From contig OZ249436.1 of the NCBI GenBank assembly GCA_965235115.1, positions 25,298,001 to 25,362,000 on the forward strand: a stretch of 64,000 bases of DNA, in the 5' to 3' direction. The position numbers and the translations under genes are program-made. The stretch is from Laetmonice hystrix. Its lineage: Eukaryota. The notes beneath the pieces were generated by a model. It worked only from the letters and a program-made list of their open reading frames with translations, was not told where the DNA came from and did not search any database. Positions 888 through 38,100 of this stretch are shown in pieces; the stretch's first letter is position 1, and every line of letters starts with the position of its first letter.

Positions 888-1753
888 ATCTCACAGAAAA
901 TACCCCACCCGGGCACATAACCTGAAAATATTCAACTTTTATCTCCAATGTATCCCTGTGCACCTAGTAGCACCCAAGCGGGCCCAATTTTGACATCCCA
1001 ACACAAATACCGCAAATACCCGCCTAATGGCACAAAAAACTTTCTACCCCTTTGCAAGTCACATTAGCGTGCTGCTTGTCGTAAAAAATGGTGCAGACCA
1101 TTTCTAAAGTCACAGTACCCCACTCCCGGCCTAATATTACGTTTCAGTATCCATATACGCTGCAAGCGGCAGGAACTCGAATACAGGCCTAAAAGTAACC
1201 CCAGTCTAGCAATATCATACTCTCATGCCATATACGAGCTTGTAATTATCTTTAATTAATGGGCTCCGCAGCACCAACCCACTGCATTAACATTTGTTTA
1301 ACAGCTTAACGCACCTTGTAAAAAATTTTCAAGTGCGTAAAAATGCGTGTCCACCTCCACATACTTTAAAAATCACCATACCCACCCAGCGACATTCACT
1401 CTAATACACGCCTAAGAGGAACTTCACTGTCCCATTTGATTCTCCAGCACGTATAGGATGTTTTAAGTAACATTCATCCACGGTCTGGCCCAATAACGTG
1501 CAACAAGGCATAGTAAGTCAATGCGACCTCGCATGTCAAACCTAACCCGCCCCCCAGCACATGAGCTGAAAATATTCAAATAGCGTGAAAACTAGAATAT
1601 AGCTTTGCTTAATACCATTATACCATCAACTCGCATTACAGGCCTAATGCGAAGCTCCCAGCCTAAAACGAGTTTCCAATTAATTTAAAGTTAACAAGAT
1701 GCACTAATAATCGATTCCAAGCCTAATTAGGCCATTGCTAGTTGGATAACCAA
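888..1753. repeat. Subunit B of the dimeric monomer (866 bp)
   Basis: Begins ATCTCACAGAAAATACCCCACCC, homologous to the A start. Shares blocks such as TGAAAACTAGAATATAGCTTTG, AAGTGCGTAAAA and TTAACAAGATGCACTA with A. Carries a B-specific insert at about 1435-1491. Confidence 0.95.
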
Positions 1754-12500: not shown

Positions 12501-15500
12501 CCAGACCATTTTAAAAAGTCACAGAACCCTAATCCGGCCCTAATATGTCACTCCCAGTACCAATACACTCTGGAAGCACCATTAACCGAAATTCAGGCCT
12601 AGAACCAAACCTCTCTCTACCAATATCATGCACCTAGTCCGTATACGAGGTTGTAATTTACTTTAATCAACGGGCTGCGCCGCAGCAACCCACTCTGGAC
12701 TTTGCAATCTTTTTCAATATGCGTTAACATTTGTGACCAGCTCAACGCGCCTTGTAAAATTTTTCAAAGTGCGTAAAAGTGTGTGTCCACCCCGACACGG
12801 TTTCCAAACCACTATACCCACCGAGCGACATCCACTCAAATACAGGCTTCGACCGATCCTCACTGTGCCAATAATCCGCCACAAGGCAAATTCAGTCAAT
12901 GCAAGCTGGAAAATCGAATGTCAAACCTAATGCTCCCCCCCCCCCCAGCACGTTAACTGAAAATAATCAACTAGCTTGAAAACTAGAATATAGCTTTGTT
13001 TAGCTAACAATCTACTCTCCCAGCGCCATCAACTCGCATACAGGCGTAAAAGCAAACGCACTGCCCCATATAATGCTCCCAGCCTAAAACGATGTTGCAA
13101 TTAATTTAAAATTAACAAGATGCACTAGTAATCCGATCCAAGCCTAATTACGTCATTGCTAGTTTCATAACCAAATCTCACAGAAAATACCCCACCCGCG
13201 CACATAACCTGAAAATATTCAACTTTTATCTCCAATGTATCCCTGTGCACCTAGTAGCACCCAAGCGGGCCCAATTTTGACATTCCAACACAAATACCGC
13301 AAATACCCGCCTAATGGGACAAAAAACTTTCTACCCCGTTGCAAGTCACATTAGCTTGCTGCTTGTCGTAAAAAATGGTGCAGACCATTTCTAAAGTCAC
13401 AGTACCCCACTCCCGGCCTAATATTACGTTTCAGTATCCATATACGCTGCAAGCGGCAGGAACTCGAATACAGGCCTAAAAGTAACCCCAGTCTAGCAAT
13501 ATCATACTCTCATGCCATATACGAGCTTGTAATTATCTTTAATTAATGGGCTCCGCAGCACCAACCCACTGCATTAACATTTGTTTAACAGCTTAACGCA
13601 CCTTGTAAAAAATTTTCAAGTGCGTAAAAATGCGTGTCCACCTCCACATACTTTAAAAATCACTATACCCACCCAGCGACATTCACTCTAATACACGCCT
13701 AAGAGGAACTTCACTGTCCCATTTGATTCTCCAGCACGTATAGGATGTTTCAAGTAACATTCATCCACGGTCTGGCCCAATAACGTGCAACAAGGCATAG
13801 TAAGTCAATGCGAGCTCGCATGTCAAACCTAACCCGCCCCCCCAGCACATGAGCTGAAAATATTCAAATAGCTTGAAAACTAGAATATAGCTTTGCTTAA
13901 TACCATTATACCATCAACTCGCATTACAGGCCTAATGCGAAGCTCCCAGCCTAAAACGAGTTTCCAATTAATTTAAAGTTAACAAGATGCACTAATAATC
14001 GATTCCAAGCCTAATTAGGCCATTGCTAGTTGGAAAACCAAATCTCATACAAAATACACCCTCCCGGCAGATGACCTGAGAATATTCAACTCTTATGTCC
14101 GATATATCCCTGTCCGCTTTGTAGCACCCAGCCGGGCCCCCATTTTGACATTGCAACACCAATACAGCAAGTGCCCAGCTAACAGCACAAATAACAGGAT
14201 TCAGGGCTTCCTACCACGTTACAAGTCACAATAGATTGCTGCCTGTCGTAAAAATATACCAGACCATTTTAAAAAGTCACAGAACCCCAATCCGGCCCTA
14301 ATATGTCACTCCCAGTACCAATACACTCTGTAAGCACCATCAACTGAAATTCAATCCTAGAACCCACCTCTCTCTACCAATATCATGCACCTAGTCCGTA
14401 TACGAGGTTGTAATTTCCTTTAATCAACGGGCTGCGCCGCAGCAACCCACTCTGGTCTTTGCAATCTTTTTCAATATGCGTTAACATTTGTGACCAGCTC
14501 AACGCGCCTTGTAAAATTTTTCAAAGTGCGTAAAAGTGTGTGTCCACCCCGACACGCTTTCCAAACCACTATACCCACCGAGCGACATCCACTCAAATAC
14601 AGGCTTCGACCGATCCTCACTGTGCCAATAATCCGCCACAAGGCAAATTCAGTCAATGCAAGCTGGAAAATCGAATGTCAAACCTAATGCTCCCCCCCCC
14701 CAGCACGTTAACTGAAAATAATCAACTAGCTTGAAAACTAGAATATAGCTTTGTTTAGCTAACAATCTACTCTCCCAGCGCCATCAACTCGCATACAGGC
14801 GTAAAAGCAAACGCACTGCCCCATATAATGCTCCCAGCCTAAAACGATGTTGCAATTAATTTAAAATTAACAAGATGCACTAGTAATCCGATCCAAGCCT
14901 AATTACGTCATTGCTAGTTTCATAACCAAATCTCACAGAAAATACCCCACCCGCGCACATAACCTGAAAATATTCAACTTTTATCTCCAATGTATCCCTG
15001 TGCACCTAGTAGCACCCAAGCGGGCCCAATTTTGACATTCCAACACAAATACCGCAAATACCCGCCTAATGGCACAAAAAACTTTCTACCCCGTTGCAAG
15101 TCACATTAGCTTGCTGCTTGTCGTAAAAAATGGTGCAGACCATTTCTAAAGTCACAGTACCCCACTCCCGGCCTAATATTACGTTTCAGTATCCATATAC
15201 GCTGCAAGCGGCAAGAACTCGAATACAGGCCTAAAAGTAACCCCAGTCTAGCAATATCATACTCTCATGCCATATACGAGCTTGTAATTATCTTTAATTA
15301 ATGGGCTCCGCAGCACCAACCCACTGCATTAACATTTGTTTAACAGCTTAACGCACCTTGTAAAAAATTTTCAAGTGCGTAAAAATGCGTGTCCACCTCC
15401 ACATACTTTAAAAATCACTATACCCACCCAGCGACATTCACTCTAATACACGCCTAAGAGGAACTTCACTGTCCCATTTGATTCTCCAGCACGTATAGGA

Positions 15501-15795
15501 TGTTTCAAGTAACATTCATCCACGGTCTGGCCCAATAACGTGCAACAAGGCATAGTAAGTCAATGCGAGCTCGCATGTCAAACCTAACCCGCCCCCCAGC
15601 ACATGAGCTGAAAATATTCAAATAGCTTGAAAACTAGAATATAGCTTTGCTTAATACCATTATACCATCAACTCGCATTACAGGCCTAATGCGAAGCTCC
15701 CAGCCTAAAACGAGTTTCCAATTAATTTAAAGTTAACAAGATGCACTAATAATCGATTCCAAGCCTAATTAGGCCATTGCTAGTTGGATAACCAA
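3509..15795. repeat. Alternating two-monomer higher-order repeat (Y-X-Y-X-Y-X-Y, period about 3,510 bp)
   Basis: Y monomers carry CTGTAAG, TTCAATCC, TTTCCTTT and GGCAAGAA. X monomers carry ATTAACCG, GGACTTT and GGAAAACC. Rare variants recur 3,510 bp apart: CTTTTCAAACC at about 5781/9291, and CACAAACAAC at about 8051/11561. Confidence 0.9.
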
Positions 15796-18700
15796 ATCTC
15801 ATACAAAATACACCCTCCCGGCAGATGACCTGAGAATATTCAACTCTTATGTCCGATATATCCCTGTCCGCTTAGTAGCACCCAGCCGGGCCCCCATTTT
15901 GACATTGCAACACCAATACAGCAAGTGCCCAGCTAACAGCACAAATAACAGGATTCAGGGCTTCCTACCACGTTACAAGTCACAATAGATTGCTGCCTGT
16001 CGTAAAAATATACCAGACCATTTTAAAAAGTCACAGAACCCTAATCCGGCCCTAATATGTCACTCCCAGTACCAATACACTCTGGAAGCACCATCAACTG
16101 AAATTCAGGCCTAGAACCAAACCTCTCTCTACCAATATCATGCACCTAGTCCGTATACGAGGTTGTAATTTACTTTAATCAACGGGCTGCGCCGCAGCAA
16201 CCCACTCTGGTCTTTGCAATCTTTTTCAATATGCGTTAACATTTGTAACCAGCTCAACGCGCCTTGTAAAATTTTTCAAAGTGCGTAAAAGTGTGTGTCC
16301 ACCCCGACACGCTTTCCAAACCACTATACCCACCGAGCGACATCCACTCAAATACAGGCTTCGACCGATCCTCACTGTGCCAATAATCCGCCACAAGGCA
16401 AATTCAGTCAATGCAAGCTGGAAAATCGAATGTCAAACCTAATACTCCCCCCCCAGCACGTTAACTGAAAATAATCAACTAGCTTGAAAACTAGAATATA
16501 GCTTTGTTTAGCTAACAATCTACTCTCCCAGCGCCATCAACTCGCATACAGGCGTAAAAGCAAACGCACTGCCCCATATAATGCTCCCAGCCTAAAACGA
16601 TGTTGCAATTAATTTAAAATTAACAAGATGCACTAGTAATCCGATCCAAGCCTAATTACGTCATTGCTAGTTTCATAACCAAATCTCACAGAAAATACCC
16701 CACCCGCGCACATAACCTGAAAATATTCAACTTTTATCTCCAATGTATCCCTGTGCACCTAGTAGCACCCAAGCGGGCCCAATTTTGACATTCCAACACA
16801 AATACCGCAAATACCCGCCTAATGGCACAAAAAACTTTCTACCCCGTTGCAAGTCACATTAGCTTGCTGCTTGTCGTAAAAAATGGTGCAGACCATTTCT
16901 AAAGTCACAGTACCCCACTCCCGGCCTAATATTACGTTTCAGTATCCATATACGCTGCAAGCGGCAGGAACTCGAATACAGGCCTAAAAGTAACCCCAGT
17001 CTAGCAATATCATACTCTCATGCCATATACGAGCTTGTAATTATCTTTAATTAATGGGCTCCGCAGCACCAACCCACTGCATTAACATTTGTTTAACAGC
17101 TTAACGCACCTTGTAAAAAATTTTCAAGTGCGTAAAAATGCGTGTCCACCTCCACATACTTTAAAAATCACTATACCCACCCAGCGACATTCACTCTAAT
17201 ACACGCCTAAGAGGAACTTCACTGTCCCATTTGATTCTCCAGCACGTATAGGATGTTTCAAGTAACATTCATCCACGGTCTGGCCCAATAACGTGCAACA
17301 AGGCATAGTAAGTCAATGCGAGCTCGCATGTCAAACCTAACCCGCCCCCCAGCACATGAGCTGAAAATATTCAAATAGCTTGAAAACTAGAATATAGCTT
17401 TGCTTAATACCATTATACCATCAACTCGCATTACAGGCCTAATGCGAAGCTCCCAGCCTAAAACGAGTTTCCAATTAATTTAAAGTTAACAAGATGCACT
17501 AATAATCGATTCCAAGCCTAATTAGGCCATTGCTAGTTGGATAACCAAATCTCATACAAAATACACCCTCCCGGCAGATGACCTGAGAATATTCAACTCT
17601 TATGTCCGATATATCCCTGTCCGCTTAGTAGCACCCAGCCGGGCCCCCATTTTGACATTGCAACACCAATACAGCAAGTGCCCAGCTAACAGCACAAATA
17701 ACAGGATTCAGGGCTTCCTACCACGTTACAAGTCACAATAGATTGCTGCCTGTCGTAAAAATATACCAGACCATTTTAAAAAGTCACAGAACCCCAATCC
17801 GGCCCTAATATGTCACTCCCAGTACCAATACACTCTGGAAGCACCATCAACTGAAATTCAGGCCTAGAACCCACCTCTCTCTACCAATATCATGCACCTA
17901 GTCCGTATACGAGGTTGTAATTTACTTTAATCAACGGGCTGCGCCGCAGCAACCCACTCTGGTCTTTGCAATCTTTTTCAATATGCGTTAACATTTGTAA
18001 CCAGCTCAACGCGCCTTGTAAAATTTTTCAAAGTGCGTAAAAGTGTGTGTCCACCCCGACACGCTTTCCAAACCACTATACCCACCGAGCGACATCCACT
18101 CAAATACAGGCTTCGACCGATCCTCACTGTGCCAATAATCCGCCACAAGGCAAATTCAGTCAATGCAAGCTGGAAAATCGAATGTCAAACCTAATGCTCC
18201 CCCCCCCAGCACGTTAACTGAAAAAAATCAACTAGCTTGAAAACTAGAATATAGCTTTGTTTAGCTAACAATCTACTCTCCCAGCGCCATCAACTCGCAT
18301 ACAGGCGTAAAAGCAAACGCACTGCCCCATATAATGCTCCCAGCCTAAAACGATGTTGCAATTAATTTAAAATTAACAAGATGCACTAGTAATCCGATCC
18401 AAGCTTAATTACGTCATTGCTAGTTTCATAACCAAATCTCACAGAAAATACCCCACCTGGGCACATAACCTGAAAATATTCAACTTTTATCTCCAATGTA
18501 TCCCTGTGCACCTAGTAGCACCCAAGCGGGCCCAATTTTGACATCCCAACACAAATACCGCAAATACCCGCCTAATGGCACAAAAAACTTTCTACCCCGT
18601 TGCAAATCACATTAGCGTGCTGCTTGTCGTAAAAAATGGTGCAGACCATTTCTAAAGTCACAGTACCCCACTCCCGGCCTAATATTACGTTTCAGTATCC

Positions 18701-21700
18701 ATATACGCTGCAAGCGGCAGGAACTCGAATACAGGCCTAAAAGTAACCTCAGTCTAGCAATATCATACTCCCATGCCATATACGAGCTTGTAATTATCTT
18801 TAATTAATGGGCTCCGCAGCACCAACCCACTGCATTAACATTTGTTTAACAGCTTAACGCACCTTGTAAAATTTTTTCAAGTGCGTAAAAATGCGTGTCC
18901 ACCTCCACATACTTTAAAAATCACTATACCCACCCAGCGACATCCACTCTAATACACGCCTAAAAGGAACTTCACTGTCCCATTTGATTCTCCAGCACGT
19001 ATAGGATGTTTCAAGTAACATTCATCCACGGTCTGGCCCAATAACGTGCAACAAGGCATAGTAAGTCAATGCGACCTCGCATGTCAAACCTAACCCGCCC
19101 CCCAGCACATGAGCTGAAAATATTCAAATAGCTTGAAAACTAGAATATAGCTTTGCTTAATACCATTATACCATCAACTCGCATTACAGGCCTAATGCGA
19201 AGCTCCCAGCCTAAAACGAGTTTCCAATTAATTTAAAGTTAACAAGATGCACTAATAATCGATTCCAAGCCTAATTAGGCCATTGCTAGTTGGATAACCA
19301 AATCTCATACAAAATACACCCTCCCGGCAGATGACCTGAGAATATTCAACTCTTATGTCCGATATATCCCTGTCCGCTTAGTAGCACCCAGCCGGGCCCC
19401 CATTTTGACATTGCAACACCAATACAGCAAGTGCCCAGCTAACAGCACAAATAACAGGATTCAGGGCTTCCTACCACGTTACAAGTCACAATAGATTGCT
19501 GCCTGTCGTAAAAATATACCAGACCATTTTAAAAAGTCACAGAACCCCAATCCGGCCCTAATATGTCACTCCCAGTACCAATAGACGCTGGAAGCACCAT
19601 CAACTGAAATTCAGGCCTAGAACCCACCTCTCTCTACCAATATCATGCACCTAGTCCGTATACGAGGTTGTAATTTACTTTAATCAACGGGCTGCGCCGC
19701 AGCAACCCACTCTGGTCTTTGCAATCTTTTTCAATATGCGTTAACATTTGTGACCAGCTCAACGCGCCTTGTAAAATTTTTCGAAGTGCGTAAAAGTGTG
19801 TGTCCACCCCGACACGCTTTCCAAACCACTATACCCACCGAGCGACATCCACTCAAATACAGGCTTCGACCGATCCTCACTGTGCCAATAATCCGCCACA
19901 AGGCAAATTCAGTCAATGCAAGCTGGAAAATCGAATGTCAAACCTAATGCTCCCCCCCCCCAGCACGTTAACTGAAAAAAATCAACTAGCTTGAAAACTA
20001 GAATATAGCTTTGTTTAGCTAACAATCTACTCTCCCAGCGCCATCAACTCGCATACAGGCGTAAAAGCAAACGCACTGCCCCATATAATGCTCCCAGCCT
20101 AAAACGATGTTGCAATTAATTTAAAATTAACAAGATGCACTAGTAATCCGATCCAAGCCTAATTACGTCATTGCTAGTTTCATAACCAAATCTCACAGAA
20201 AATACCCCACCCGCGCACATAACCTGAAAATATTCAACTTTTATCTCCAATGTATCCCTGTGCACCTAGTAGCACCCAAGCGGGCCCAATTTTGACATTC
20301 CAACACAAATACCGCAAATACCCGCCTAATGGCACAAAAAACTTTCTACCCCGTTGCAAGTCACATTAGCTTGCTGCTTGTCGTAAAAAATGGTGCAGAC
20401 CATTTCTAAAGTCACAGTACCCCACTCCCGGCCTAATATTACGTTTCAGTATCCATATACGCTGTAAGCGGCAAGAACTCGAATACAGGCCTAAAAGTAA
20501 CCCCAGTCTAGCAATATCATACTCTCATGCCATATACGAGCTTGTAATTATCTTTAATTAATGGGCTCCGCAGCACCAACCCACTGCATTAACATTTGTT
20601 TAACAGCTTAACGCACCTTGTAAAAAATTTTCAAGTGCGTAAAAATGCGTGTCCACCTCCACATACTTTAAAAATCACTATACCCACCCAGCGACATTCA
20701 CTCTAATACACGCCTAAGAGGAACTTCACTGTCCCATTTGATTCTCCAGCACGTATAGGATGTTTCAAGTAACATTCATCCACGGTCTGGCCCAATAACG
20801 TGCAACAAGGCATAGTAAGTCAATGCGAGCTCGCATGTCAAACCTAACCCGCCCCCCAGCACATGAGCTGAAAATATTCAAATAGCTTGAAAACTAGAAT
20901 ATAGCTTTGCTTAATACCATTATACCATCAACTCGCATTACAGGCCTAATGCGAAGCTCCCAGCCTAAAACGAGTTTCCAATTAATTTAAAGTTAACAAG
21001 ATGCACTAATAATCGATTCCAAGCCTAATTAGGCCATTGCTAGTTGGATAACCAAATCTCATACAAAATACACCCTCCCGGCAGATGACCTGAGAATATT
21101 CAACTCTTATGTCCGATATATCCCTGTCCGCTTTGTAGCACCCAGCCGGGCCCCCATTTTGACATTGCAACACCAATACAGCAAGTGCCCAGCTAACAGC
21201 ACAAATAACAGGATTCAGGGCTTCCTACCACGTTACAAGTCACAATAGATTGCTGCCTGTCGTAAAAATATACCAGACCATTTTAAAAAGTCACAGAACC
21301 CCAATCCGGCCCTAATATGTCACTCCCAGTACCAATACACTCTGGAAGCACCATCAACTGAAATTCAGGCCTAGAACCCACCTCTCTCTACCAATATCAT
21401 GCACCTAGTCCGTATACGAGGTTGTAATTTACTTTAATCAACGGGCTGCGCCGCAGCAACCCACTCTGGTCTTTGCAATCTTTTTCAATATGCGTTAACA
21501 TTTGTAACCAGCTCAACGCGCCTTGTAAAATTTTTCAAAGTGCGTAAAAGTGTGTGTCCACCCCGACACGCTTTCCAAACCACTATACCCACCGAGCGAC
21601 ATCCACTCAAATACAGGCTTCGACCGATCCTCACTGTGCCAATAATCCGCCACAAGGCAAATTCAGTCAATGCAAGCTGGAAAATCGAATGTCAAACCTA

Positions 21701-24505
21701 ATGTTCCCCCCCCAGCACGTTAACTGAAAAAAATCAACTAGCTTGAAAACTAGAATATAGCTTTGTTTAGCTAACAATCTACTCTCCCAGCGCCATCAAC
21801 TCGCATACAGGCGTAAAAGCAAACGCACTGCCCCATATAATGCTCCCAGCCTAAAACGATGTTGCAATTAATTTAAAATTAACAAGATGCACTAGTAATC
21901 CGATCCAAGCCTAATTACGTCATTGCTAGTTTCATAACCAAATCTCACAGAAAATACCCCACCCGCGCACATAACCTGAAAATATTCAACTTTTATCTCC
22001 AATGTATCCCTGTGCACCTAGTAGCACCCAAGCGGGCCCAATTTTGACATTCCAACACAAATACCGCAAATACCCGCCTAATGGCACAAAAAACTTTCTA
22101 CCCCGTTGCAAGTCACATTAGCTTGCTGCTTGTCGTAAAAAATGGTGCAGACCATTTCTAAAGTCACAGTACCCCACTCCCGGCCTAATATTACGTTTCA
22201 GTATCCATATACGCTGCAAGCGGCAAGAACTCGAATACAGGCCTAAAAGTAACCCCAGTCTAGCAATATCATACTCTCATGCCATATACGAGCTTGTAAT
22301 TATCTTTAATTAATGGGCTCCGCAGCACCAACCCACTGCATTAACATTTGTTTAACAGCTTAACGCACCTTGTAAAAAATTTTCAAGTGCGTAAAAATGC
22401 GTGTCCACCTCCACATACTTTAAAAATCACTATACCCACCCAGCGACATTCACTCTAATACACGCCTAAGAGGAACTTCACTGTCCCATTTGATTCTCCA
22501 GCACGTATAGGATGTTTCAAGTAACATTCATCCACGGTCTGGCCCAATAACGTGCAACAAGGCATAGTGAGTCAATGCGAGCTCGCATGTCAAACCTAAC
22601 CCGCCCCCCAGCACATGAGCTGAAAATATTCAAATAGCTTGAAAACTAGAATATAGCTTTGCTTAATACCATTATACCATCAACTCGCATTACAGGCCTA
22701 ATGCGAAGCTCCCAGCCTAAAACGAGTTTCCAATTAATTTAAAGTTAACAAGATGCACTAATAATCGATTCCAAGCCTAATTAGGCCATTGCTAGTTGGA
22801 TAACCAAATCTCATACAAAATACACCCTCCCGGCAGATGACCTGAGAATATTCAACTCTTATGTCCGATATATCCCTGTCCGCTTTGTAGCACCCAGCCG
22901 GGCCCCCATTTTGACATTGCAACACCAATACAGCAAGTGCCCAGCTAACAGCACAAATAACAGGATTCAGGGCTTCCTACCACGTTACAAGTCACAATAG
23001 ATTGCTGCCTGTCGTAAAAATATACCAGACCATTTTAAAAAGTCACAGAACCCCAATCCGGCCCTAATATGTCACTCCCAGTACCAATACACTCTGGAAG
23101 CACCATCAACTGAAATTCAGGCCTAGAACCCACCTCTCTATACCAATATCATGCACCTAGTCCGTATACGAGGTTGTAATTTACTTTAATCAACGGGCTG
23201 CGCCGCAGCAACCCACTCTGGTCTTTGCAATCTTTTTCAATATGCGTTAACATTTGTAACCAGCTCAACGCGCCTTGTAAAATTTTTCAAAGTGCGTAAA
23301 AGTGTGTGTCCACCCCGACACGCTTTCCAAACCACTATACCCACCGAGCGACATCCACTCAAATACAGGCTTCGACCGATCCTCACTGTGCCAATAATCC
23401 GCCACAAGGCAAATTCAGTCAATGCAAGCTGGAAAATCGAATGTCAAACCTAATACTCCCCCCCAGCACGTTAACTGAAAATAATCAACTAGCTTGAAAA
23501 CTAGAATATAGCTTTGTTAAGCTAACAATCTACTCTCCCAGCGCCATCAACTCGCATACAGGCGTAAAAGCAAACGCACTGCCCCATATAATGCTCCCAG
23601 CCTAAAACGATGTTGCAATTAATTTAAAATTAACAAGATGCACTAGTAATCCGATCCAAGCTTAATTACGTCATTGCTAGTTTCATAACCAAATCTCACA
23701 GAAAATACCCCACCCGGGCACATAACCTGAAAATATTCAACTTTTATCTCCAATGTATCCCTGTGCACCTAGTAGCACCCAAGCGGGCCCAATTTTGACA
23801 TCCCAACACAAATACCGCAAATACCCGCCTAATGGCACAAAAAACTTTCTACCCCGTTGCAAATCACATTAGCGTGCTGCTTGTCGTAAAAAATGGTGCA
23901 GACCATTTCTAAAGTCACAGTACCCCACTCCCGGCCTAATATTACGTTTCAGTATCCATATACGCTGCAAGCGGCAGGAACTCGAATACAGGCCTAAAAG
24001 TAACCTCAGTCTAGCAATATCATACTCCCATGCCATATACGAGCTTGTAATTATCTTTAATTAATGGGCTCCGCAGCACCAACCCACTGCATTAACATTT
24101 GTTTAACAGCTTAACGCACCTTGTAAAATTTTTTCAAGTGCGTAAAAATGCGTGTCCACCTCCACATACTTTAAAAATCACTATACCCACCCAGCGACAT
24201 CCACTCTAATACACGCCTAAAAGGAACTTCACTGTCCCATTTGATTCTCCAGCACGTATAGGATGTTTCAAGTAACATTCATCCACGGTCTGGCCCAATA
24301 ACGTGCAACAAGGCATAGTAAGTCAATGCGACCTCGCATGTCAAACCTAACCCGCCCCCCAGCACATGAGCTGAAAATATTCAAATAGCGTGAAAACTAG
24401 AATATAGCTTTGCTTAATACCATTATACCATCAACTCGCATTACAGGCCTAATGCGAAGCTCCCAGCCTAAAACGAGTTTCCAATTAATTTAAAGTTAAC
24501 AAGAT

Positions 24506-24675
24506 GCACTAATAATCGATTCCAAGCCTAATTAGGCCATTGCTAGTTGGATAACCAAATCTCATACAAAATACACCCTCCCGGCAGATGACCTGAGAAT
24601 ATTCAACTCTTATGTCCGATATATCCCTGTCCGCTTAGTAGCACCCAGCCAGGCCCCCATTTTGACATTGCAACA
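24506..24675 (+). repeat. Left copy of a 170-bp direct duplication flanking inverted insert 1 (monomer positions 1701-1753 plus 1-117)
   Basis: Same sequence as 24970-25139 except CCAGGCCC versus CCGGGCCC at 24651. Confidence 0.93.
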
Positions 24676-24971
24676 AGTTGATTATTTTCAGTTAACGTGC
24701 TGGGGGGGGGAGCATTAGGTTTGACATTCGATTTTCCAGCTTGCATTGACTGAATTTGCCTTGTGGCGGATTATTGGCACAGTGAGGATCGGTCGAAGCC
24801 TGTATTTGAGTGGATGTCGCTCGGTGGGTATAGTGGTTTGGAAAGCGTGTCGGGGTGGACACACACTTTTACGCACTTTGAAAAATTTTACAAGGCGCGT
24901 TGAGCTGGTTACAAATGTTAACGCATATTGAAAAAGATTGCAAAGACCAGAGTGGGTTGCTGCGGCGCAGC
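24676..24971 (-). repeat. Inverted monomer fragment 1 (296 bp; reverse complement of monomer positions 391-685)
   Basis: AGTTGATTATTTTCAGTTAACGTGCTG9AGCATTAGG...GGGTTGCTGCGGCGCAGC is the reverse complement of subunit A 391-685. The 61-aa ORF flips to the + strand at 24746-24931. Confidence 0.98.
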
Positions 24972-25139
24972 ACTAATAATCGATTCCAAGCCTAATTAGG
25001 CCATTGCTAGTTGGATAACCAAATCTCATACAAAATACACCCTCCCGGCAGATGACCTGAGAATATTCAACTCTTATGTCCGATATATCCCTGTCCGCTT
25101 AGTAGCACCCAGCCGGGCCCCCATTTTGACATTGCAACA
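24970..25139 (+). repeat. Right copy of the 170-bp direct duplication flanking inverted insert 1
   Basis: The array resumes at GCACTAATAATCG (monomer position 1701). A 2-bp GC overlap is shared with the end of the inverted segment. Confidence 0.93.
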
Positions 25140-26890
25140 CCAATACAGCAAGTGACCAGCTAACAGCACAAATAACAGGATTCAGGGCTTCCTACCACGT
25201 TACAAGTCACAATAGATTGCTGCCTGTCGTAAAAATATACCAGACCATTTTAAAAAGTCACAGAACCCCAATCCGGCCCTAATATGTCACTCCCAGTACC
25301 AATACACTCTGGAAGCACCATCAACTGAAATTCAGGCCTAGAACCCACCTCTCTATACCAATATCATGCACCTAGTCCGTATACGAGGTTGTAATTTACT
25401 TTAATCAACGGGCTGCGCCGCAGCAACCCACTCTGGTCTTTGCAATCTTTTTCAATATGCGTTAACATTTGTAACCAGCTCAACGCGCCTTGTAAAATTT
25501 TTCAAAGTGCGTAAAAGTGTGTGTCCACCCCGACACGCTTTCCAAACCACTATACCCACCGAGCGACATCCACTCAAATACAGGCTTCGACCGATCCTCA
25601 CTGTGCCAATAATCCGCCACAAGGCAAATTCAGTCAATGCAAGCTGGAAAATCGAATGTCAAACCTAATACTCCCCCCCAGCACGTTAACTGAAAATAAT
25701 CAACTAGCTTGAAAACTAGAATATAGCTTTGTTAAGCTAACAATCTACTCTCCCAGCGCCATCAACTCGCATACAGGCGTAAAAGCAAACGCACTGCCCC
25801 ATATAATGCTCCCAGCCTAAAACGATGTTGCAATTAATTTAAAATTAACAAGATGCACTAGTAATCCGATCCAAGCTTAATTACGTCATTGCTAGTTTCA
25901 TAACCAAATCTCACAGAAAATACCCCACCCGGGCACATAACCTGAAAATATTCAACTTTTATCTCCAATGTATCCCTGTGCACCTAGTAGCACCCAAGCG
26001 GGCCCAATTTTGACATCCCAACACAAATACCGCAAATACCCGCCTAATGGCACAAAAAACTTTCTACCCCGTTGCAAATCACATTAGCGTGCTGCTTGTC
26101 GTAAAAAATGGTGCAGACCATTTCTAAAGTCACAGTACCCCACTCCCGGCCTAATATTACGTTTCAGTATCCATATACGCTGCAAGCGGCAGGAACTCGA
26201 ATACAGGCCTAAAAGTAACCTCAGTCTAGCAATATCATACTCCCATGCCATATACGAGCTTGTAATTATCTTTAATTAATGGGCTCCGCAGCACCAACCC
26301 ACTGCATTAACATTTGTTTAACAGCTTAACGCACCTTGTAAAATTTTTTCAAGTGCGTAAAAATGCGTGTCCACCTCCACATACTTTAAAAATCACTATA
26401 CCCACCCAGCGACATCCACTCTAATACACGCCTAAAAGGAACTTCACTGTCCCATTTGATTCTCCAGCACGTATAGGATGTTTCAAGTAACATTCATCCA
26501 CGGTCTGGCCCAATAACGTGCAACAAGGCATAGTAAGTCAATGCGACCTCGCATGTCAAACCTAACCCGCCCCCCAGCACATGAGCTGAAAATATTCAAA
26601 TAGCGTGAAAACTAGAATATAGCTTTGCTTAATACCATTATACCATCAACTCGCATTACAGGCCTAATGCGAAGCTCCCAGCCTAAAACGAGTTTCCAAT
26701 TAATTTAAAGTTAACAAGATGCACTAATAATCGATTCCAAGCCTAATTAGGCCATTGCTAGTTGGATAACCAAATCTCATACAAAATACACCCTCCCGGC
26801 AGATGACCTGAGAATATTCAACTCTTATGTCCGATATATCCCTGTCCGCTTAGTAGCACCCAGCCAGGCCCCCATTTTGACATTGCAACA

Positions 26891-27186
26891 AGTTGATTAT
26901 TTTCAGTTAACGTGCTGGGGGGGGGAGCATTAGGTTTGACATTCGATTTTCCAGCTTGCATTGACTGAATTTGCCTTGTGGCGGATTATTGGCACAGTGA
27001 GGATCGGTCGAAGCCTGTATTTGAGTGGATGTCGCTCGGTGGGTATAGTGGTTTGGAAAGCGTGTCGGGGTGGACACACACTTTTACGCACTTTGAAAAA
27101 TTTTACAAGGCGCGTTGAGCTGGTTACAAATGTTAACGCATATTGAAAAAGATTGCAAAGACCAGAGTGGGTTGCTGCGGCGCAGC
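26891..27186 (-). repeat. Inverted monomer fragment 2 (same sequence and junctions as fragment 1, 2,215 bp downstream)
   Basis: Junctions TTGCAACA|AGTTGATT and GGCGCAGC|ACTAATAA are identical to those of fragment 1. The ORF lies on the + strand at 26961-27146. Confidence 0.98.
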
Positions 27187-30100
27187 ACTAATAATCGATT
27201 CCAAGCCTAATTAGGCCATTGCTAGTTGGATAACCAAATCTCATACAAAATACACCCTCCCGGCAGATGACCTGAGAATATTCAACTCTTATGTCCGATA
27301 TATCCCTGTCCGCTTAGTAGCACCCAGCCGGGCCCCCATTTTGACATTGCAACACCAATACAGCAAGTGACCAGCTAACAGCACAAATAACAGGATTCAG
27401 GGCTTCCTACCACGTTACAAGTCACAATAGATTGCTGCCTGTCGTAAAAATATACCAGACCATTTTAAAAAGTCACAGGACCCAAATCCGGCCCTAATAT
27501 GTCACTCCCAGTACGAATACACGCTGGAAGCACCATCAACTGAAATTCAGGCCTAGAACCCACCTCTCTCTACCAATATCATGCACCTAGTCCGTATACG
27601 AGGTTGTAATTTACTTTAATCAACGGGCTGCGCCGCAGCAACCCACTCTGGTCTTTGCAATCTTTTTCAATATGCGTTAACATTTGTAACCAGCTCAACG
27701 CGCCTTGTAAAATTTTTCAAAGTGCGTAAAAGTGTGTGTCCACCCCGACACGCTTTCCAAACCACTATACCCACCGAGCGACATCCACTCAAATACAGGC
27801 TTCGACCGATCCTCACTGTGCCAATAATCCGCCACAAGGCAAATTCAGTCAATGCAAGCTGGAAAATCGAATGTCAAACCTAATGCTCCCCCCCAGCACG
27901 TTAACTGAAAATAATCAACTAGCTTGAAAACTAGAATATAGCTTTGTTAAGCTAACAATCTACTCTCCCAGCGCCATCAACTCGCATACAGGCGTAAAAG
28001 CAAACGCACTGCCCCATATAATGCTCCCAGCCTAAAACGATGTTGCAATTAATTTAAAATTAACAAGATGCACTAGTAATCCGATCCAAGCCTAATTACG
28101 TCATTGCTAGTTTCATAACCAAATCTTACAGAAAATACCCCACCCGCGCACATAACCTGAAAATATTCAACTTTTATCTCCAATGTATCCCTGTGCACCT
28201 AGTAGCACCCAAGCGGGCCCAATTTTGACATTCCAACACAAATACCGCAAATACCCGCCTAATGGCACAAAAAACTTTCTACCCCGTTGCAAGTCACATT
28301 AGCTTGCTGCTTGTCGTAAAAAATGGTGCAGACCATTTCTAAAGTCACAGTACCCCACTCCCGGCCTAATATTACGTTTCAGTATCCATATACGCTGCAA
28401 GCGGCAGGAACTCGAATACAGGCCTAAAAGTAACCCCAGTCTAGCAATATCATACTCTCATGCCATATACGAGCTTGTAATTATCTTTAATTAATGGGCT
28501 CCGCAGCACCAACCCACTGCATTAACATTTGTTTAACAGCTTAACGCACCTTGTAAAAAATTTTCAAGTGCGTAAAAATGCGTGTCCACCTCCACATACT
28601 TTAAAAATCACTATACCCACCCAGCGACATTCACTCTAATACACGCCTAAGAGGAACTTCACTGTCCCATTTGATTCTCCAGCACGTATAGGATGTTTCA
28701 AGTAACATTTATCCACGGTCTGGCCCAATAACGTGCAACAAGGCATAGTAAGTCAATGCGACCTCGCATGTCAAACCTAACCCGCCCCCCAGCACATGAG
28801 CTGGAGATATTCAAATAGCTTGAAAACTAGAATATAGCTTTGCTTAATACCATTATACCATCAACTCGCATTACAGGCCTAATGCGAAGCTCCCAGCCTA
28901 AAACGAGTTTCCAATTAATTTAAAGTTAACAAGATGCACTAATAATCGATTCCAAGCCTAATTAGGCCATTGCTAGTTGGATAACCAAATCTCATACAAA
29001 ATACACCCTCCCGGCAGATGACCTGAGAATATTCAACTCTTATGTCCGATATATCCCTGTCCGCTTAGTAGCACCCAGCCGGGCCCCCATTTTGACATTG
29101 CAACACCAATACAGCAAGTGCCCAGCTAACAGCACAAATAACAGGATTCAGGGCTTCCTACCACGTTACAAGTCACAATAGATTGCTGCCTGTCGTAAAA
29201 ATATACCAGACCATTTTAAAAAGTCACAGAACCCTAATCCGGCCCTAATATGTCACTCCCAGTACCAATACACTCTGGAAGCACCATCAACTGAAATTCA
29301 GGCCTAGAACCAAACCTCTCTCTACCAATATCATGCACCTAGTCCGTATACGAGGTTGTAATTTACTTTAATCAACGGGCTGCGCCGCAGCAACCCACTC
29401 TGGTCTTTGCAATCTTTTTCAATATGCGTTAACATTTGTAACCAGCTCAACGCGCCTTGTAAAATTTTTCAAAGTGCGTAAAAGTGTGTGTCCACCCCGA
29501 CACGCTTTCCAAACCACTATACCCACCGAGCGACATCCACTCAAATACAGGCTTCGACCGATCCTCACTGTGCCAATAATCCGCCACAAGGCAAATTCAG
29601 TCAATGCAAGCTGGAAAATCGAATGTCAAACCTAATACTCCCCCCCCAGCACGTTAACTGAAAATAATCAACTAGCTTGAAAACTAGAATATAGCTTTGT
29701 TTAGCTAACAATCTACTCTCCCAGCGCCATCAACTCGCATACAGGCGTAAAAGCAAACGCACTGCCCCATATAATGCTCCCAGCCTAAAACGATGTTGCA
29801 ATTAATTTAAAATTAACAAGATGCACTAGTAATCCGATCCAAGCTTAATTACGTCATTGCTAGTTTCATAACCAAATCTCACAGAAAATACCCCACCCGG
29901 GCACATAACCTGAAAATATTCAACTTTTATCTCCAATGTATCCCTGTGCACCTAGTAGCACCCAAGCGGGCCCAATTTTGACATCCCAACACAAATACCG
30001 CAAATACCCGCCTAATGGCACAAAAAACTTTCTACCCCTTTGCAAGTCACATTAGCGTGCTGCTTGTCGTAAAAAATGGTGCAGACCATTTCTAAAGTCA

Positions 30101-32140
30101 CAGTACCCCACTCCCGGCCTAATATTACGTTTCAGTATCCATATACGCTGCAAGCGGCAGGAACTCGAATACAGGCCTAAAAGTAACCCCAGTCTAGCAA
30201 TATCATACTCTCATGCCATATACGAGCTTGTAATTATCTTTAATTAATGGGCTCCGCAGCACCAACCCACTGCATTAACATTTGTTTAACAGCTTAACGC
30301 ACCTTGTAAAAAATTTTCAAGTGCGTAAAAATGCGTGTCCACCTCCACATACTTTAAAAATCACCATACCCACCCAGCGACATTCACTCTAATACACGCC
30401 TAAGAGGAACTTCACTGTCCCATTTGATTCTCCAGCACGTATAGGATGTTTTAAGTAACATTCATCCACGGTCTGGCCCAATAACGTGCAACAAGGCATA
30501 GTAAGTCAATGCGACCTCGCATGTCAAACCTAACCCGCCCCCCAGCACATGAGCTGAAAATATTCAAATAGCGTGAAAACTAGAATATAGCTTTGCTTAA
30601 TACCATTATACCATCAACTCGCATTACAGGCCTAATGCGAAGCTCCCAGCCTAAAACGAGTTTCCAATTAATTTAAAGTTAACAAGATGCACTAATAATC
30701 GATTCCAAGCCTAATTAGGCCATTGCTAGTTGGATAACCAAATCTCATACAAAATACACCCTCCCGGCAGATGACCTGAGAATATTCAACTCTTATGTCC
30801 GATATATCCCTGTCCGCTTTGTAGCACCCAGCCGGGCCCCCATTTTGACATTGCAACACCAATACAGCAAGTGCCCAGCTAACAGCACAAATAACAGGAT
30901 TCAGGGCTTCCTACCACGTTACAAGTCACAATAGATTGCTGCCTGTCGTAAAAATATACCAGACCATTTTAAAAAGTCACAGAACCCCAATCCGGCCCTA
31001 ATATGTCACTCCCAGTACCAATACACTCTGTAAGCACCATCAACTGAAATTCAGGCCTAGAACCCACCTCTCTCTACCAATATCATGCACCTAGTCCGTA
31101 TACGAGGTTGTAATTTCCTTTAATCAACGGGCTGCGCCGCAGCAACCCACTCTGGACTTTGCAATCTTTTTCAATATGCGTTAACATTTGTGACCAGCTC
31201 AACGCGCCTTGTAAAATTTTTCAAAGTGCGTAAAAGTGTGTGTCCACCCCGACACGCTTTCCAAACCACTATACCCACCGAGCGACATCCACTCAAATAC
31301 AGGCTTCGACCGATCCTCACTGTGCCAATAATCCGCCACAAGGCAAATTCAGTCAATGCAAGCTGGAAAATCGAATGTCAAACCTAATGCTCCCCCCCCC
31401 CAAGCACGTTAACTGAAAATAATCAACTAGCTTGAAAACTAGAATATAGCTTTGTTTAGCTAACAATCTACTCTCCCAGCGCCATCAACTCGCATACAGG
31501 CGTAAAAGCAAACGCACTGCCCCATATAATGCTCCCAGCCTAAAACGATGTTGCAATTAATTTAAAATTAACAAGATGCACTAGTAATCCGATCCAAGCC
31601 TAATTACGTCATTGCTAGTTTCATAACCAAATCTCACAGAAAATACCCCACCCGCGCACATAACCTGAAAATATTCAACTTTTATCTCCAATGTATCCCT
31701 GTGCACCTAGTAGCACCCAAGCGGGCCCAATTTTGACATTCCAACACAAATACCGCAAATACCCGCCTAATGGCACAAAAAACTTTCTACCCCGTTGCAA
31801 GTCACATTAGCTTGCTGCTTGTCGTAAAAAATGGTGCAGACCATTTCTAAAGTCACAGTACCCCACTCCCGGCCTAATATTACGTTTCAGTATCCATATA
31901 CGCTGCAAGCGGCAGGAACTCGAATACAGGCCTAAAAGTAACCCCAGTCTAGCAATATCATACTCTCATGCCATATACGAGCTTGTAATTATCTTTAATT
32001 AATGGGCTCCGCAGCACCAACCCACTGCATTAACATTTGTTTAACAGCTTAACGCACCTTGTAAAAAATTTTCAAGTGCGTAAAAATGCGTGTCCACCTC
32101 CACATACTTTAAAAATCACTATACCCACCCAGCGACATTC

Positions 32141-35100
32141 TCTCTAATACACGCCTAAGAGGAACTTCACTGTCCCATTTGATTCTCCAGCACGTATAGG
32201 ATGTTTCAAGTAACATTCATCCACGGTCTGGCCCAATAACGTGCAACAAGGCATAGTAAGTCAATGCGAGCTCGCATGTCAAACCTAACCCGCCCCCCCA
32301 GCACATGAGCTGAAAATATTCAAATAGCTTGAAAACTAGAATATAGCTTTGCTTAATACCATTATACCATCAACTCGCATTACAGGCCTAATGCGAAGCT
32401 CCCAGCCTAAAACGAGTTTCCAATTAATTTAAAGTTAACAAGATGCACTAATAATCGATTCCAAGCCTAATTAGGCCATTGCTAGTTGGAAAACCAAATC
32501 TCATACAAAATACACCCTCCCGGCAGATGACCTGAGAATATTCAACTCTTATGTCCGATATATCCCTGTCCGCTTAGTAGCACCCAGCCGGGCCCCCATT
32601 TTGACATTGCAACACCAATACAGCAAGTGCCCAGCTAACAGCACAAATAACAGGATTCAGGGCTTCCTACCACGTTACAAGTCACAATAGATTGCTGCCT
32701 GTCGTAAAAATATACCAGACCATTTTAAAAAGTCACAGAACCCCAATCCGGCCCTAATATGTCACTCCCAGTACCAATACACTCTGTAAGCACCATCAAC
32801 TGAAATTCAATCCTAGAACCCACCTCTCTCTACCAATATCATGCACCTAGTCCGTATACGAGGTTGTAATTTCCTTTAATCAACGGGCTGCGCCGCAGCA
32901 ACCCACTCTGGTCTTTGCAATCTTTTTCAATATGCGTTAACATTTGTGACCAGCTCAACGCGCCTTGTAAAATTTTTCAAAGTGCGTAAAAGTGTGTGTC
33001 CACCCCGACACGCTTTCCAAACCACTATACCCACCGAGCGACATCCACTCAAATACAGGCTTCGACCGATCCTCACTGTGCCAATAATCCGCCACAAGGC
33101 AAATTCAGTCAATGCAAGCTGGAAAATCGAATGTCAAACCTAATGCTCCCCCCCCCCAGCACGTTAACTGAAAATAATCAACTAGCTTGAAAACTAGAAT
33201 ATAGCTTTGTTTAGCTAACAATCTACTCTCCCAGCGCCATCAACTCGCATACAGGCGTAAAAGCAAACGCACTGCCCCATATAATGCTCCCAGCCTAAAA
33301 CGATGTTGCAATTAATTTAAAATTAACAAGATGCACTAGTAATCCGATCCAAGCCTAATTACGTCATTGCTAGTTTCATAACCAAATCTCACAGAAAATA
33401 CCCCACCCGCGCACATAACCTGAAAATATTCAACTTTTATCTCCAATGTATCCCTGTGCACCTAGTAGCACCCAAGCGGGCCCAATTTTGACATTCCAAC
33501 ACAAATACCGCAAATACCCGCCTAATGGCACAAAAAACTTTCTACCCCGTTGCAAGTCACATTAGCTTGCTGCTTGTCGTAAAAAATGGTGCAGACCATT
33601 TCTAAAGTCACAGTACCCCACTCCCGGCCTAATATTACGTTTCAGTATCCATATACGCTGCAAGCGGCAAGAACTCGAATACAGGCCTAAAAGTAACCCC
33701 AGTCTAGCAATATCATACTCTCATGCCATATACGAGCTTGTAATTATCTTTAATTAATGGGCTCCGCAGCACCAACCCACTGCATTAACATTTGTTTAAC
33801 AGCTTAACGCACCTTGTAAAAAATTTTCAAGTGCGTAAAAATGCGTGTCCACCTCCACATACTTTAAAAATCACTATACCCACCCAGCGACATTCACTCT
33901 AATACACGCCTAAGAGGAACTTCACTGTCCCATTTGATTCTCCAGCACGTATAGGATGTTTCAAGTAACATTCATCCACGGTCTGGCCCAATAACGTGCA
34001 ACAAGGCATAGTAAGTCAATGCGAGCTCGCATGTCAAACCTAACCCGCCCCCCAGCACATGAGCTGAAAATATTCAAATAGCTTGAAAACTAGAATATAG
34101 CTTTGCTTAATACCATTATACCATCAACTCGCATTACAGGCCTAATGCGAAGCTCCCAGCCTAAAACGAGTTTCCAATTAATTTAAAGTTAACAAGATGC
34201 ACTAATAATCGATTCCAAGCCTAATTAGGCCATTGCTAGTTGGATAACCAAATCTCATACAAAATACACCCTCCCGGCAGATGACCTGAGAATATTCAAC
34301 TCTTATGTCCGATATATCCCTGTCCGCTTAGTAGCACCCAGCCGGGCCCCCATTTTTACATTGCAACACCAATACAGCAAGTGCCCAGCTAACAGCACAA
34401 ATAACAGGATTCAGGGCTTCCTACCACGTTACAAGTCACAATAGATTGCTGCCTGTCGTAAAAATATACCAGACCATTTTAAAAAGTCACAGAACCCTAA
34501 TCCGGCCCTAATATGTCACTCCCAGTACCAATACACTCTGGAAGCACCATTAACCGAAATTCAGGCCTAGAACCAAACCTCTCTCTACCAATATCATGCA
34601 CCTAGTCCGTATACGAGGTTGTAATTTACTTTAATCAACGGGCTGCGCCGCAGCAACCCACTCTGGACTTTGCAATCTTTTTCAATATGCGTTAACATTT
34701 GTGACCAGCTCAACGCGCCTTGTAAAATTTTTCAAAGTGCGTAAAAGTGTGTGTCCACCCCGACACGCTTTCCAAACCACTATACCCACCGAGCGACATC
34801 CACTCAAATACAGGCTTCGACCGATCCTCACTGTGCCAATAATCCGCCACAAGGCAAATTCAGTCAATGCAAGCTGGAAAATCGAATGTCAAACCTAATG
34901 CTCCCCCCCCCCAGCACGTTAACTGAAAATAATCAACTAGCTTGAAAACTAGAATATAGCTTTGTTTAGCTAACAATCTACTCTCCCAGCGCCATCAACT
35001 CGCATACAGGCGTAAAAGCAAACGCACTGCCCCATATAATGCTCCCAGCCTAAAACGATGTTGCAATTAATTTAAAATTAACAAGATGCACTAGTAATCC

Positions 35101-38100
35101 GATCCAAGCCTAATTACGTCATTGCTAGTTTCATAACCAAATCTCACAGAAAATACCCCACCCGCGCACATAACCTGAAAATATTCAACTTTTATCTCCA
35201 ATGTATCCCTGTGCACCTAGTAGCACCCAAGCGGGCCCAATTTTGACATTCCAACACAAATACCGCAAATACCCGCCTAATGGCACAAAAAACTTTCTAC
35301 CCCGTTGCAAGTCACATTAGCTTGCTGCTTGTCGTAAAAAATGGTGCAGACCATTTCTAAAGTCACAGTACCCCACTCCCGGCCTAATATTACGTTTCAG
35401 TATCCATATACGCTGCAAGCGGCAGGAACTCGAATACAGGCCTAAAAGTAACCCCAGTCTAGCAATATCATACTCTCATGCCATATACGAGCTTGTAATT
35501 ATCTTTAATTAATGGGCTCCGCAGCACCAACCCACTGCATTAACATTTGTTTAACAGCTTAACGCACCTTGTAAAAAATTTTCAAGTGCGTAAAAATGCG
35601 TGTCCACCTCCACATACTTTAAAAATCACTATACCCACCCAGCGACATTCACTCTAATACACGCCTAAGAGGAACTTCACTGTCCCATTTGATTCTCCAG
35701 CACGTATAGGATGTTTCAAGTAACATTCATCCACGGTCTGGCCCAATAACGTGCAACAAGGCAGAGTAAGTCAATGCGAGCTCGCATGTCAAACCTAACC
35801 CGCCCCCCCAGCACATGAGCTGAAAATATTCAAATAGCTTGAAAACTAGAATATAGCTTTGCTTAATACCATTATACCATCAACTCGCATTACAGGCCTA
35901 ATGCGAAGCTCCCAGCCTAAAACGAGTTTCCAATTAATTTAAAGTTAACAAGATGCACTAATAATCGATTCCAAGCCTAATTAGGCCATTGCTAGTTGGA
36001 AAACCAAATCTCATACAAAATACACCCTCCCGGCAGATGACCTGAGAATATTCAACTCTTATGTCCGATATATCCCTGTCCGCTTTGTAGCACCCAGCCG
36101 GGCCCCCATTTTGACATTGCAACACCAATACAGCAAGTGCCCAGCTAACAGCACAAATAACAGGATTCAGGGCTTCCTACCACGTTACAAGTCACAATAG
36201 ATTGCTGCCTGTCGTAAAAATATACCAGACCATTTTAAAAAGTCACAGAACCCCAATCCGGCCCTAATATGTCACTCCCAGTACCAATACACTCTGTAAG
36301 CACCATCAACTGAAATTCAATCCTAGAACCCACCTCTCTCTACCAATATCATGCACCTAGTCCGTATACGAGGTTGTAATTTCCTTTAATCAACGGGCTG
36401 CGCCGCAGCAACCCACTCTGGTCTTTGCAATCTTTTTCAATATGCGTTAACATTTGTGACCAGCTCAACGCGCCTTGTAAAATTTTTCAAAGTGCGTAAA
36501 AGTGTGTGTCCACCCCGACACGCTTTCCAAACCACTATACCCACCGAGCGACATCCACTCAAATACAGGCTTCGACCGATCCTCACTGTGCCAATAATCC
36601 GCCACAAGGCAAATTCAGTCAATGCAAGCTGGAAAATCGAATGTCAAACCTAATGCTCCCCCCCCCAGCACGTTAACTGAAAATAATCAACTAGCTTGAA
36701 AACTAGAATATAGCTTTGTTTAGCTAACAATCTACTCTCCCAGCGCCATCAACTCGCATACAGGCGTAAAAGCAAACGCACTGCCCCATATAATGCTCCC
36801 AGCCTAAAACGATGTTGCAATTAATTTAAAATTAACAAGATGCACTAGTAATCCGATCCAAGCCTAATTACGTCATTGCTAGTTTCATAACCAAATCTCA
36901 CAGAAAATACCCCACCCGCGCACATAACCTGAAAATATTCAACTTTTATCTCCAATGTATCCCTGTGCACCTAGTAGCACCCAAGCGGGCCCAATTTTGA
37001 CATTCCAACACAAATACCGCAAATACCCGCCTAATGGCACAAACAACTTTCTACCCCGTTGCAAGTCACATTAGCTTGCTGCTTGTCGTAAAAAATGGTG
37101 CAGACCATTTCTAAAGTCACAGTACCCCACTCCCGGCCTAATATTACGTTTCAGTGTCCATATACGCTGCAAGCGGCAAGAACTCGAATACAGGCCTAAA
37201 AGTAACCCCAGTCTAGCAATATCATACTCTCATGCCATATACGAGCTTGTAATTATCTTTAATTAATGGGCTCCGCAGCACCAACCCACTGCATTAACAT
37301 TTGTTTAACAGCTTAACGCACCTTGTAAAAAATTTTCAAGTGCGTAAAAATGCGTGTCCACCTCCACATACTTTAAAAATCACTATACCCACCCAGCGAC
37401 ATTCACTCTAATACACGCCTAAGAGGAACTTCACTGTCCCATTTGATTCTCCAGCACGTATAGGATGTTTCAAGTAACATTCATCCACGGTCTGGCCCAA
37501 TAACGTGCAACAAGGCATAGTAAGTCAATGCGAGCTCGCATGTCAAACCTAACCCGCCCCCCAGCACATGAGCTGAAAATATTCAAATAGCTTGAAAACT
37601 AGAATATAGCTTTGCTTAATACCATTATACCATCAACTCGCATTACAGGCCTAATGCGAAGCTCCCAGCCTAAAACGAGTTTCCAATTAATTTAAAGTTA
37701 ACAAGATGCACTAATAATCGATTCCAAGCCTAATTAGGCCATTGCTAGTTGGATAACCAAATCTCATACAAAATACACCCTCCCGGCAGATGACCTGAGA
37801 ATATTCAACTCTTATGTCCGATATATCCCTGTCCGCTTAGTAGCACCCAGCCGGGCCCCCATTTTGACATTGCAACACCAATACAGCAAGTGCCCAGCTA
37901 ACAGCACAAATAACAGGATTCAGGGCTTCCTACCACGTTACAAGTCACAATAGATTGCTGCCTGTCGTAAAAATATACCAGACCATTTTAAAAAGTCACA
38001 GAACCCTAATCCGGCCCTAATATGTCACTCCCAGTACCAATACACTCTGGAAGCACCATCAACTGAAATTCAGGCCTAGAACCAAACCTCTCTCTACCAA

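Follow-up and report, generated by a model that had tools for sequence, protein, structure and literature searches.

Organization of the array

The window analysed here, a 64,000-bp stretch of the Laetmonice hystrix genome, is occupied from end to end (1..64000, + strand) by a single satellite in head-to-tail arrangement, whose composition is uniform (43% GC). Its monomer is about 1753 bp long; 36 full or near-full units were recognized by mapping on window 1-1753, with 98.6-100% identity and a mean pairwise difference between monomers of 13.4 substitutions (0.76%). The monomer is a dimer of an 887-bp and an 866-bp half (~69% alike), and represents an old higher-order repeat that is by now homogenised at 1753 bp; weaker periods near 430-450 and 600-640 bp are also visible inside it. 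The Rfam search gave no match at E<=1 for window 1-4000, a span of over two monomers, and the longest stop-to-stop frame in 22800-27500 has 87 aa; with no Rfam match and no frame above this length, an RNA gene or a coding repeat was rejected. A literature search on annelid satellites gave no named family for the repeat.

Every unit contains a C-tract (monomer 651-659, e.g. window 25673-25679) of 7 to 12 bases, whose length differs even between substitution-free monomer pairs; the same length variants appear in contigs of public sequencing runs. In window 1754-15795, two haplotype classes alternate and form a local two-monomer higher-order repeat of 3509 bp, with exact tracts of up to 4630 bp. 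Furthermore, three long-range duplications of several monomers with exact identity are found in the window: 13378-18207 and 51129-55958 (4830 bp), 1-2412 and 28989-31400 (2412 bp), and 35765-40910 and 44534-49679 (5146 bp). One monomer (58807-60502; unit of 1696 bp) carries a 57-bp deletion at 60181-60183, with a 2-bp overlap at the join and a single copy in the window.

Structure of the rearranged segment

The scar at 24506-25139 was mapped by self-BLAST and by mapping on the reference monomer (window 1-1753). It begins with a left 170-bp copy of monomer 1701-1753 plus 1-117 (24506..24675, + strand), of which 24559-24675 correspond to monomer 1-117. This is followed by a 296-bp insert on the opposite strand (24676..24971, - strand) that runs from monomer position 685 back to 391, is 99.3% identical to the monomer and carries the haplotype 416T 452A 483A 649G C9 677T. 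The + strand then resumes with the right 170-bp copy (24970..25139), whose first part, 24970-25022, is monomer 1701-1753. The minus-strand match of the insert (E 6e-150) is beyond chance. The two 170-bp copies form a direct repeat at an offset of 464, with one mismatch at monomer position 93, 24 bp before the left junction: the left copy has the private allele 93A (window 24651), found in 0 of 35 intact monomers, and the right copy has 93G. There is no overlap at the left junction and a 2-bp overlap (GC, 24970-24971) at the right one. The strand switches, the resumption at 1701 and the repeated 170 bp had been described in a first-pass annotation and were confirmed base by base, and the overlaps that it gave for the junctions were measured again with the same result. 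Together with the forward copy of monomer 391-685 (25412..25705, + strand), the insert forms a 296-bp inverted repeat (99.0% alike) around a 440-bp spacer.

For comparison, 200,000 random inverted junctions were drawn in this monomer; 57% of these have no overlap and 15% have an overlap of at least 2 bp, which places the observed 0 and 2 bp at chance level. Similarly, there is no excess of microhomeology flanking both junctions (p 0.18-0.62). The scar behaves like a two-jump template switch, yet it lacks the above-chance microhomology or microhomeology that would mark FoSTeS or MMBIR proper (0 and 2 bp), and MMBIR is not singled out, because the junction overlaps match chance; the assignment to the FoSTeS/MMBIR class in the first-pass annotation is therefore not distinguished from end joining. 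FoSTeS and MMBIR are events of replication that require factors of break-induced replication or fork restart, and their error-prone synthesis leaves new point mutations near junctions. One private substitution lies 24 bp from the left junction, which is not significant against 22 singletons in the 35 monomers, five of them in a single monomer (haplotype H, below).

Several other candidates were rejected. Recombination between inverted repeats (NAHR, DUP-TRP/INV-DUP) was rejected, as both junctions are without inverted homology; the best self-inverted match of the monomer, 30 bp at 462-491, lies away from the junctions. A transposon with target-site duplication was rejected on the grounds that the insert is 99% satellite, with frames of at most 87 aa and no Rfam match in window 1-4000. 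A 5-bp hairpin stem ends at the right switch point, as one does at 24 of 1751 positions per strand, which is not significant, the four breakpoints having been examined post hoc; the right switch point ranks at the 9th percentile for local folding energy, and the other three breakpoints are ordinary in this respect. The paralogy (~70%) of the insert's 685 end with the duplicated 170 bp is equalled by 44% of 257 alternative donor offsets. The scar is a neutral mutation scar that implies no function.

Duplication of the scarred unit

The complete 634-bp scar recurs 2215 bp downstream (26721-27354) with 0 differences, a second copy that was absent from the first-pass annotation and that contradicts its picture of an otherwise unidirectional array. 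Self-comparison resolves it into a second left 170-bp copy with 93A (26721..26890, + strand), a second insert identical to the first (26891..27186, - strand) and a second right 170-bp copy (27185..27354, + strand). The only minus-strand monomer matches in the 64 kb are the two inserts and their paralogue echoes, and the junction 16-mers occur twice each in the window (left, 24668 and 26883; right, 24964 and 27179). The identity extends beyond the scars, in that 22941-25263 and 25156-27478 are the same over 2323 bp (0 differences), i.e. the 2215-bp scarred unit is tandemly duplicated within 22941..27478 (+ strand). The variant unit holds the 296-bp inverted repeat and its 440-bp spacer, with arms that are 99.0% and 99.3% alike.

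Three monomers on the + strand surround the two scars, and SNPs distinguish them. The upstream monomer (22808..24558) has a haplotype termed G (79T, 334A, 649A, 714A, C7), and the downstream monomer (27238..28988) has a haplotype termed H, the most divergent in the window with at least 13 substitutions to any other. The monomer between the scars (25023..26773) is a mosaic of the two: it is H-like up to position 133 (79A and the rare 133A, which is found in one of 35 other monomers) and carries G alleles throughout from position 242, which places the exchange in monomer 134-241 (window 25156-25263). Because the monomer between the scars is a G/H recombinant, the scarred unit was duplicated after the scar had formed; and both scars have the private 93A and a 9-C tract in common, therefore these alleles predate the duplication. 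This SNP mosaic shows that an allele with a single scar, in the order G - scar - H, was duplicated once when H and G exchanged sequence within positions 134 to 241. From what is generally known of satellites, the route would be unequal sister exchange or slippage. The second copy is the best internal evidence for a biological scar.

Copy gain, copy loss and the donor of the insert

In a tandem array with a 1753-bp period, a gain of 464 bp and a loss of 1289 bp are equal and leave the same letters; because of this, the coordinates cannot show that nothing was lost. In the deletion register, what is left of one monomer between G and H is 464 bp, namely 1-117, the reversed 391-685, and 1701-1753, in collinear order, with losses of 273 and 1015 bp. 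The first-pass annotation had stated that nothing is lost and that the net gain is 464 bp; this stands in the duplication register only and is not valid generally, since modulo 1753 those 273 and 1015 bp may equally be lost. Its argument against a cut-and-flip inversion fails, as positions 117, 391, 685 and 1701 fit an in-place inversion with flanking deletions equally well, and for the reciprocal loss of 391-685 that it had named as the mark of a conventional inversion, the coordinates alone leave room. As a general caution, a duplication with an inverted copy and an inversion with deletions read alike in tandem arrays, and the mechanism is assignable only via monomer haplotypes.

When the insert was compared with the 36 monomers over 391-685, it had 0 substitutions to one monomer (H), one substitution to 22, two to six and three to seven. 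The candidate donor is thus the H segment at 27627..27920 (+ strand), with a C-tract of 7 versus 9 bases; the haplotype of H over 391-685 is common to no other monomer. An unrelated destroyed neighbour would rarely match, because only two of 33 pairs of neighbouring monomers agree fully over this interval. By our estimate, and before priors, these haplotypes favour copying from H, 568 bp past the departure point, at odds of about ten to one. The 2-base difference in the C-tract carries little weight against H as donor; four of 22 substitution-free monomer pairs differ by at least 2 in this tract. Against H as donor, its match is made up of three alleles that are each common (452A, 649G, 677T), H being without a private SNP in 391-685, and H has C7 and 714A in common with G, from which it may have gained them by conversion. 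Three distant monomers (17549, 36008 and 44777) have one substitution to the insert and the same 9-C tract, and they are as close to the insert as H is when the tract change is scored as one event. Both 170-bp copies carry 79A as H does, versus 79T in G, though this is weak, as 22 of 35 monomers carry A. For a gain of both segments, with none of the segment between them, the H match is favourable, the C-tract and 93A differ, and the copy counts are undefined modulo 1753.

Origin of the scar

We put about even confidence in an explanation by two events, a local two-jump inverted copy and, later, one tandem duplication of the scarred unit. In the first event, synthesis along the array would have switched away from its template at monomer position 117 and used the opposite strand for 296 bp (685 back to 391), from 568 bp ahead in the same monomer, before it restarted on the original strand at 1701, 170 bp behind the departure point. 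The product, a b d' b c d e, is the structure observed, and the presumed route to it is a replicative local two-jump copy of the FoSTeS or break-induced kind, without real microhomology. In the second event, which is recorded in the SNP mosaic, unequal homologous exchange or slippage at 134-241 of the monomers flanking the scar would have doubled the 2215-bp unit. Within 464 bp, the explanation requires a new substitution (93A) as well as one change of tract length, and its order of switch points is 4-1-3-2, with the return before the departure. Of the two template switches proposed in the first-pass annotation, a local two-switch copy remains the best single reading, and the H haplotype supports a local donor.

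Two other origins of the first event have to be weighed against this one. In the deletion register, a monomer between G and H would have undergone an in-place inversion flanked by deletions (del-INV-del, order 1-3-2-4), so that 118-390 and 686-1700 were lost and 391-685 was kept in reverse, through the end joining of two breaks or a forward jump at a stalled fork, and the same duplication would have followed; the 170-bp 'duplication' would then merely reflect the periodicity of the array. Its arithmetic is identical modulo 1753 (464-bp remnant, losses of 273 and 1015 bp), its four switch points are collinear in one monomer, its 93A and C9 require no new mutation if they were inherited from the destroyed monomer, the chance-level overlaps suit end joining, and 1-3-2-4 is the commonest type of short template switch in the part of a survey consulted (PMC5453318). 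We consider it possible but on the unlikely side, as the destroyed monomer must match the otherwise unique haplotype of H over 391-685, which two of 33 adjacent pairs do, and 93A is found in 0 of 35 intact monomers. A local donor haplotype is, on the other hand, compatible with a staggered break, in which the two strands would be nicked at points separated by 170 bp (after 117 and at 1701). Fill-in of the overhangs would double the 170 bp, and NHEJ or polymerase theta would join in between, in reverse, a 296-bp piece copied or captured from neighbouring satellite. Such a course explains the return before the departure without reopening a new duplex and accounts for the junction overlaps of 0 and 2 bp, and tandem duplications by fill-in were shown experimentally in mouse and human cells (PMC8355091); the known cases in the part of that source consulted have overhangs of ~50 bp and no inverted insert of this size, and a second process is needed to supply the insert. 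As a separate reading, the staggered break appears distinctly unlikely to us; a staggered break with a templated or captured insert nevertheless fits as well as a copy by fork restart, and the two are inseparable by sequence. Taken jointly, the readings with a local copy are probable.

A library or assembly artefact, either a chimera from amplification or a scarred unit falsely doubled in tandem, is very unlikely in our judgement, and the evidence on it comes in part from public sequencing runs. Five of eight such runs, from two studies (one organism and a marine metagenome), share part of the stretch; contigs of four of them (X1, X3, X4 and X5; at most two samples) were compared with 24590-25053. 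None among the contig pieces listed for these four runs bridges the junctions 24675/24676 and 24970/24971, and among the same pieces, loose contig ends at 24675, 24676, 24970 and 24971 continue as normal monomer. At 24654-24669, X3 has a mean depth no different from that of its single normal-monomer contig listed for this bin. The runs share only 0.57-0.63 of sampled words with the stretch, which counts on both sides, in that they are possibly from another animal. Contigs furthermore drop rare satellite variants at depths of at least 25,000, and 2847 further pieces fall outside the listing. The two scarred units are 100% identical, and amplification chimeras are mostly local inversions (>85%, in the part of PMC1855051 consulted). 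Against a chimera, one molecule would need two junctions and would then have to be duplicated by homology, both copies having the private SNP in common. Complementarity is present in 93.5% of local inverted chimeras according to the same part of that source, whereas it is absent from the left junction here. For a false join, no more than 108 bp of exact overlap would be available, and exact identity tracts of up to 5146 bp are normal for this array. The scar looks like a real allele, given that it has two junctions, that its copies share a private SNP and that homologous duplication came later.

In three runs of one organism, all 29 bins are covered very deeply (single contigs at 25,000), as for an abundant and varied satellite. 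Over 24590-25053, many contigs of runs X3-X5 are only 90-95% alike, and their depth is ~10x higher over monomer 1720-30 than over 391-685, where summed contig depth is no copy number; this pattern of divergence and depth hints at related satellite subfamilies or at dispersed copies of monomer 1720-30 elsewhere in the genome. A joint of 'opposite strands' in X1 was rejected as an inversion, as it corresponds to the paralogous half of the monomer (1302-1408) in normal orientation.

Significance

If real, the scar records two dated steps in the evolution of a satellite, first a complex rearrangement and then duplication through unequal exchange, and is a tidy example of how satellites gain inverted parts that is useful as a teaching and benchmark case. 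It is plausible that the 2215-bp variant, with two copies in 64 kb, is a first step toward a dyad-bearing satellite. The further claim that the 2215-bp unit is founding a new satellite subfamily, characterized by a long inverted repeat within the unit, is tentative and rather unlikely: one homology-free copy with return before departure would make the 296-bp arms in a single step, unequal exchange would begin to amplify the unit, and more copies would lie elsewhere in the array. If true, this would offer a direct view of the birth of monomers like those of Tribolium TmSat2. A paralogous scar, or a paralogue of H, could adjoin the window upstream, because 28989-32497, to the right of H, repeats the first two monomers of the window.

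Comparison with known systems

The scar belongs to a known class of rearrangement and is not a new mechanism, pathway or function. By titles and the beginnings of abstracts, no printed case of this exact scar within a satellite was found, and the consulted part of a centromere atlas preprint (10.64898/2026.09.17.752431) holds nothing on such junctions.

The closest counterpart is an isomer of the DUP-NML-INV/DUP rearrangements, in which a distal segment stands inverted between two direct copies of a proximal segment (PMC6902434, in part). As there, tail-to-tail and head-to-head junctions and the derivative a b d' b c d e are seen in the duplication register, and both junctions lie in cis (117 to 685 and 391 to 1701; 296 bp apart on one strand). 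Unlike the cases in the part of that source consulted, the scar spans hundreds of bases, not kilobases to megabases, sits in a tandem array that allows no count of gained copies, has junctions without Alu/LINE or microhomeology, and was later amplified in tandem.

The four-point model of short-range template switching (Loytynoja and Goldman 2017; PMC5453318, in part) likewise comprises a departure, a copy of nearby reverse complement and a return, with no pre-existing repeat needed. In the consulted part of that survey, no type with point 4 before point 1 is given among short human-chimp events and 1-3-2-4 is the commonest (45%); the order here is 4-1-3-2 in the duplication register, i.e. a class unobserved there, or 1-3-2-4 with 1.3 kb lost. 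The fragment of 296 bp is set against much shorter events in the survey, which thus has only a loose bearing.

Fill-in at staggered breaks leads to tandem duplication (CST / Pol alpha-primase, then NHEJ or TMEJ; PMC8355091, in part), and the scar shares with it a direct duplication at the break and little microhomology; the overhangs in the consulted part of that source are short and no long inserts in inverted orientation are given there.

Satellites with inverted segments are known from Tribolium, in the part of PMC13081366 consulted: TmSat2 of Tribolium madens has imperfect inverted repeats of ~300 bp within the monomer and thousands of conserved inversion sites, and the 1061-bp satellite of T. 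brevicornis likewise has inverted segments. For human alpha satellite, the consulted part of PMC4920115 gives inversions in 154 reads. Like the monomers of these satellites, the 2215-bp unit holds an inverted repeat (296 bp); unlike satellites of the TmSat2 type as described there, it has two copies in 64 kb, arms that are 99% alike, a 440-bp spacer and an unchanged direction of the array. The scarred unit is at an early stage and falls short of an established family or a macro-dyad.
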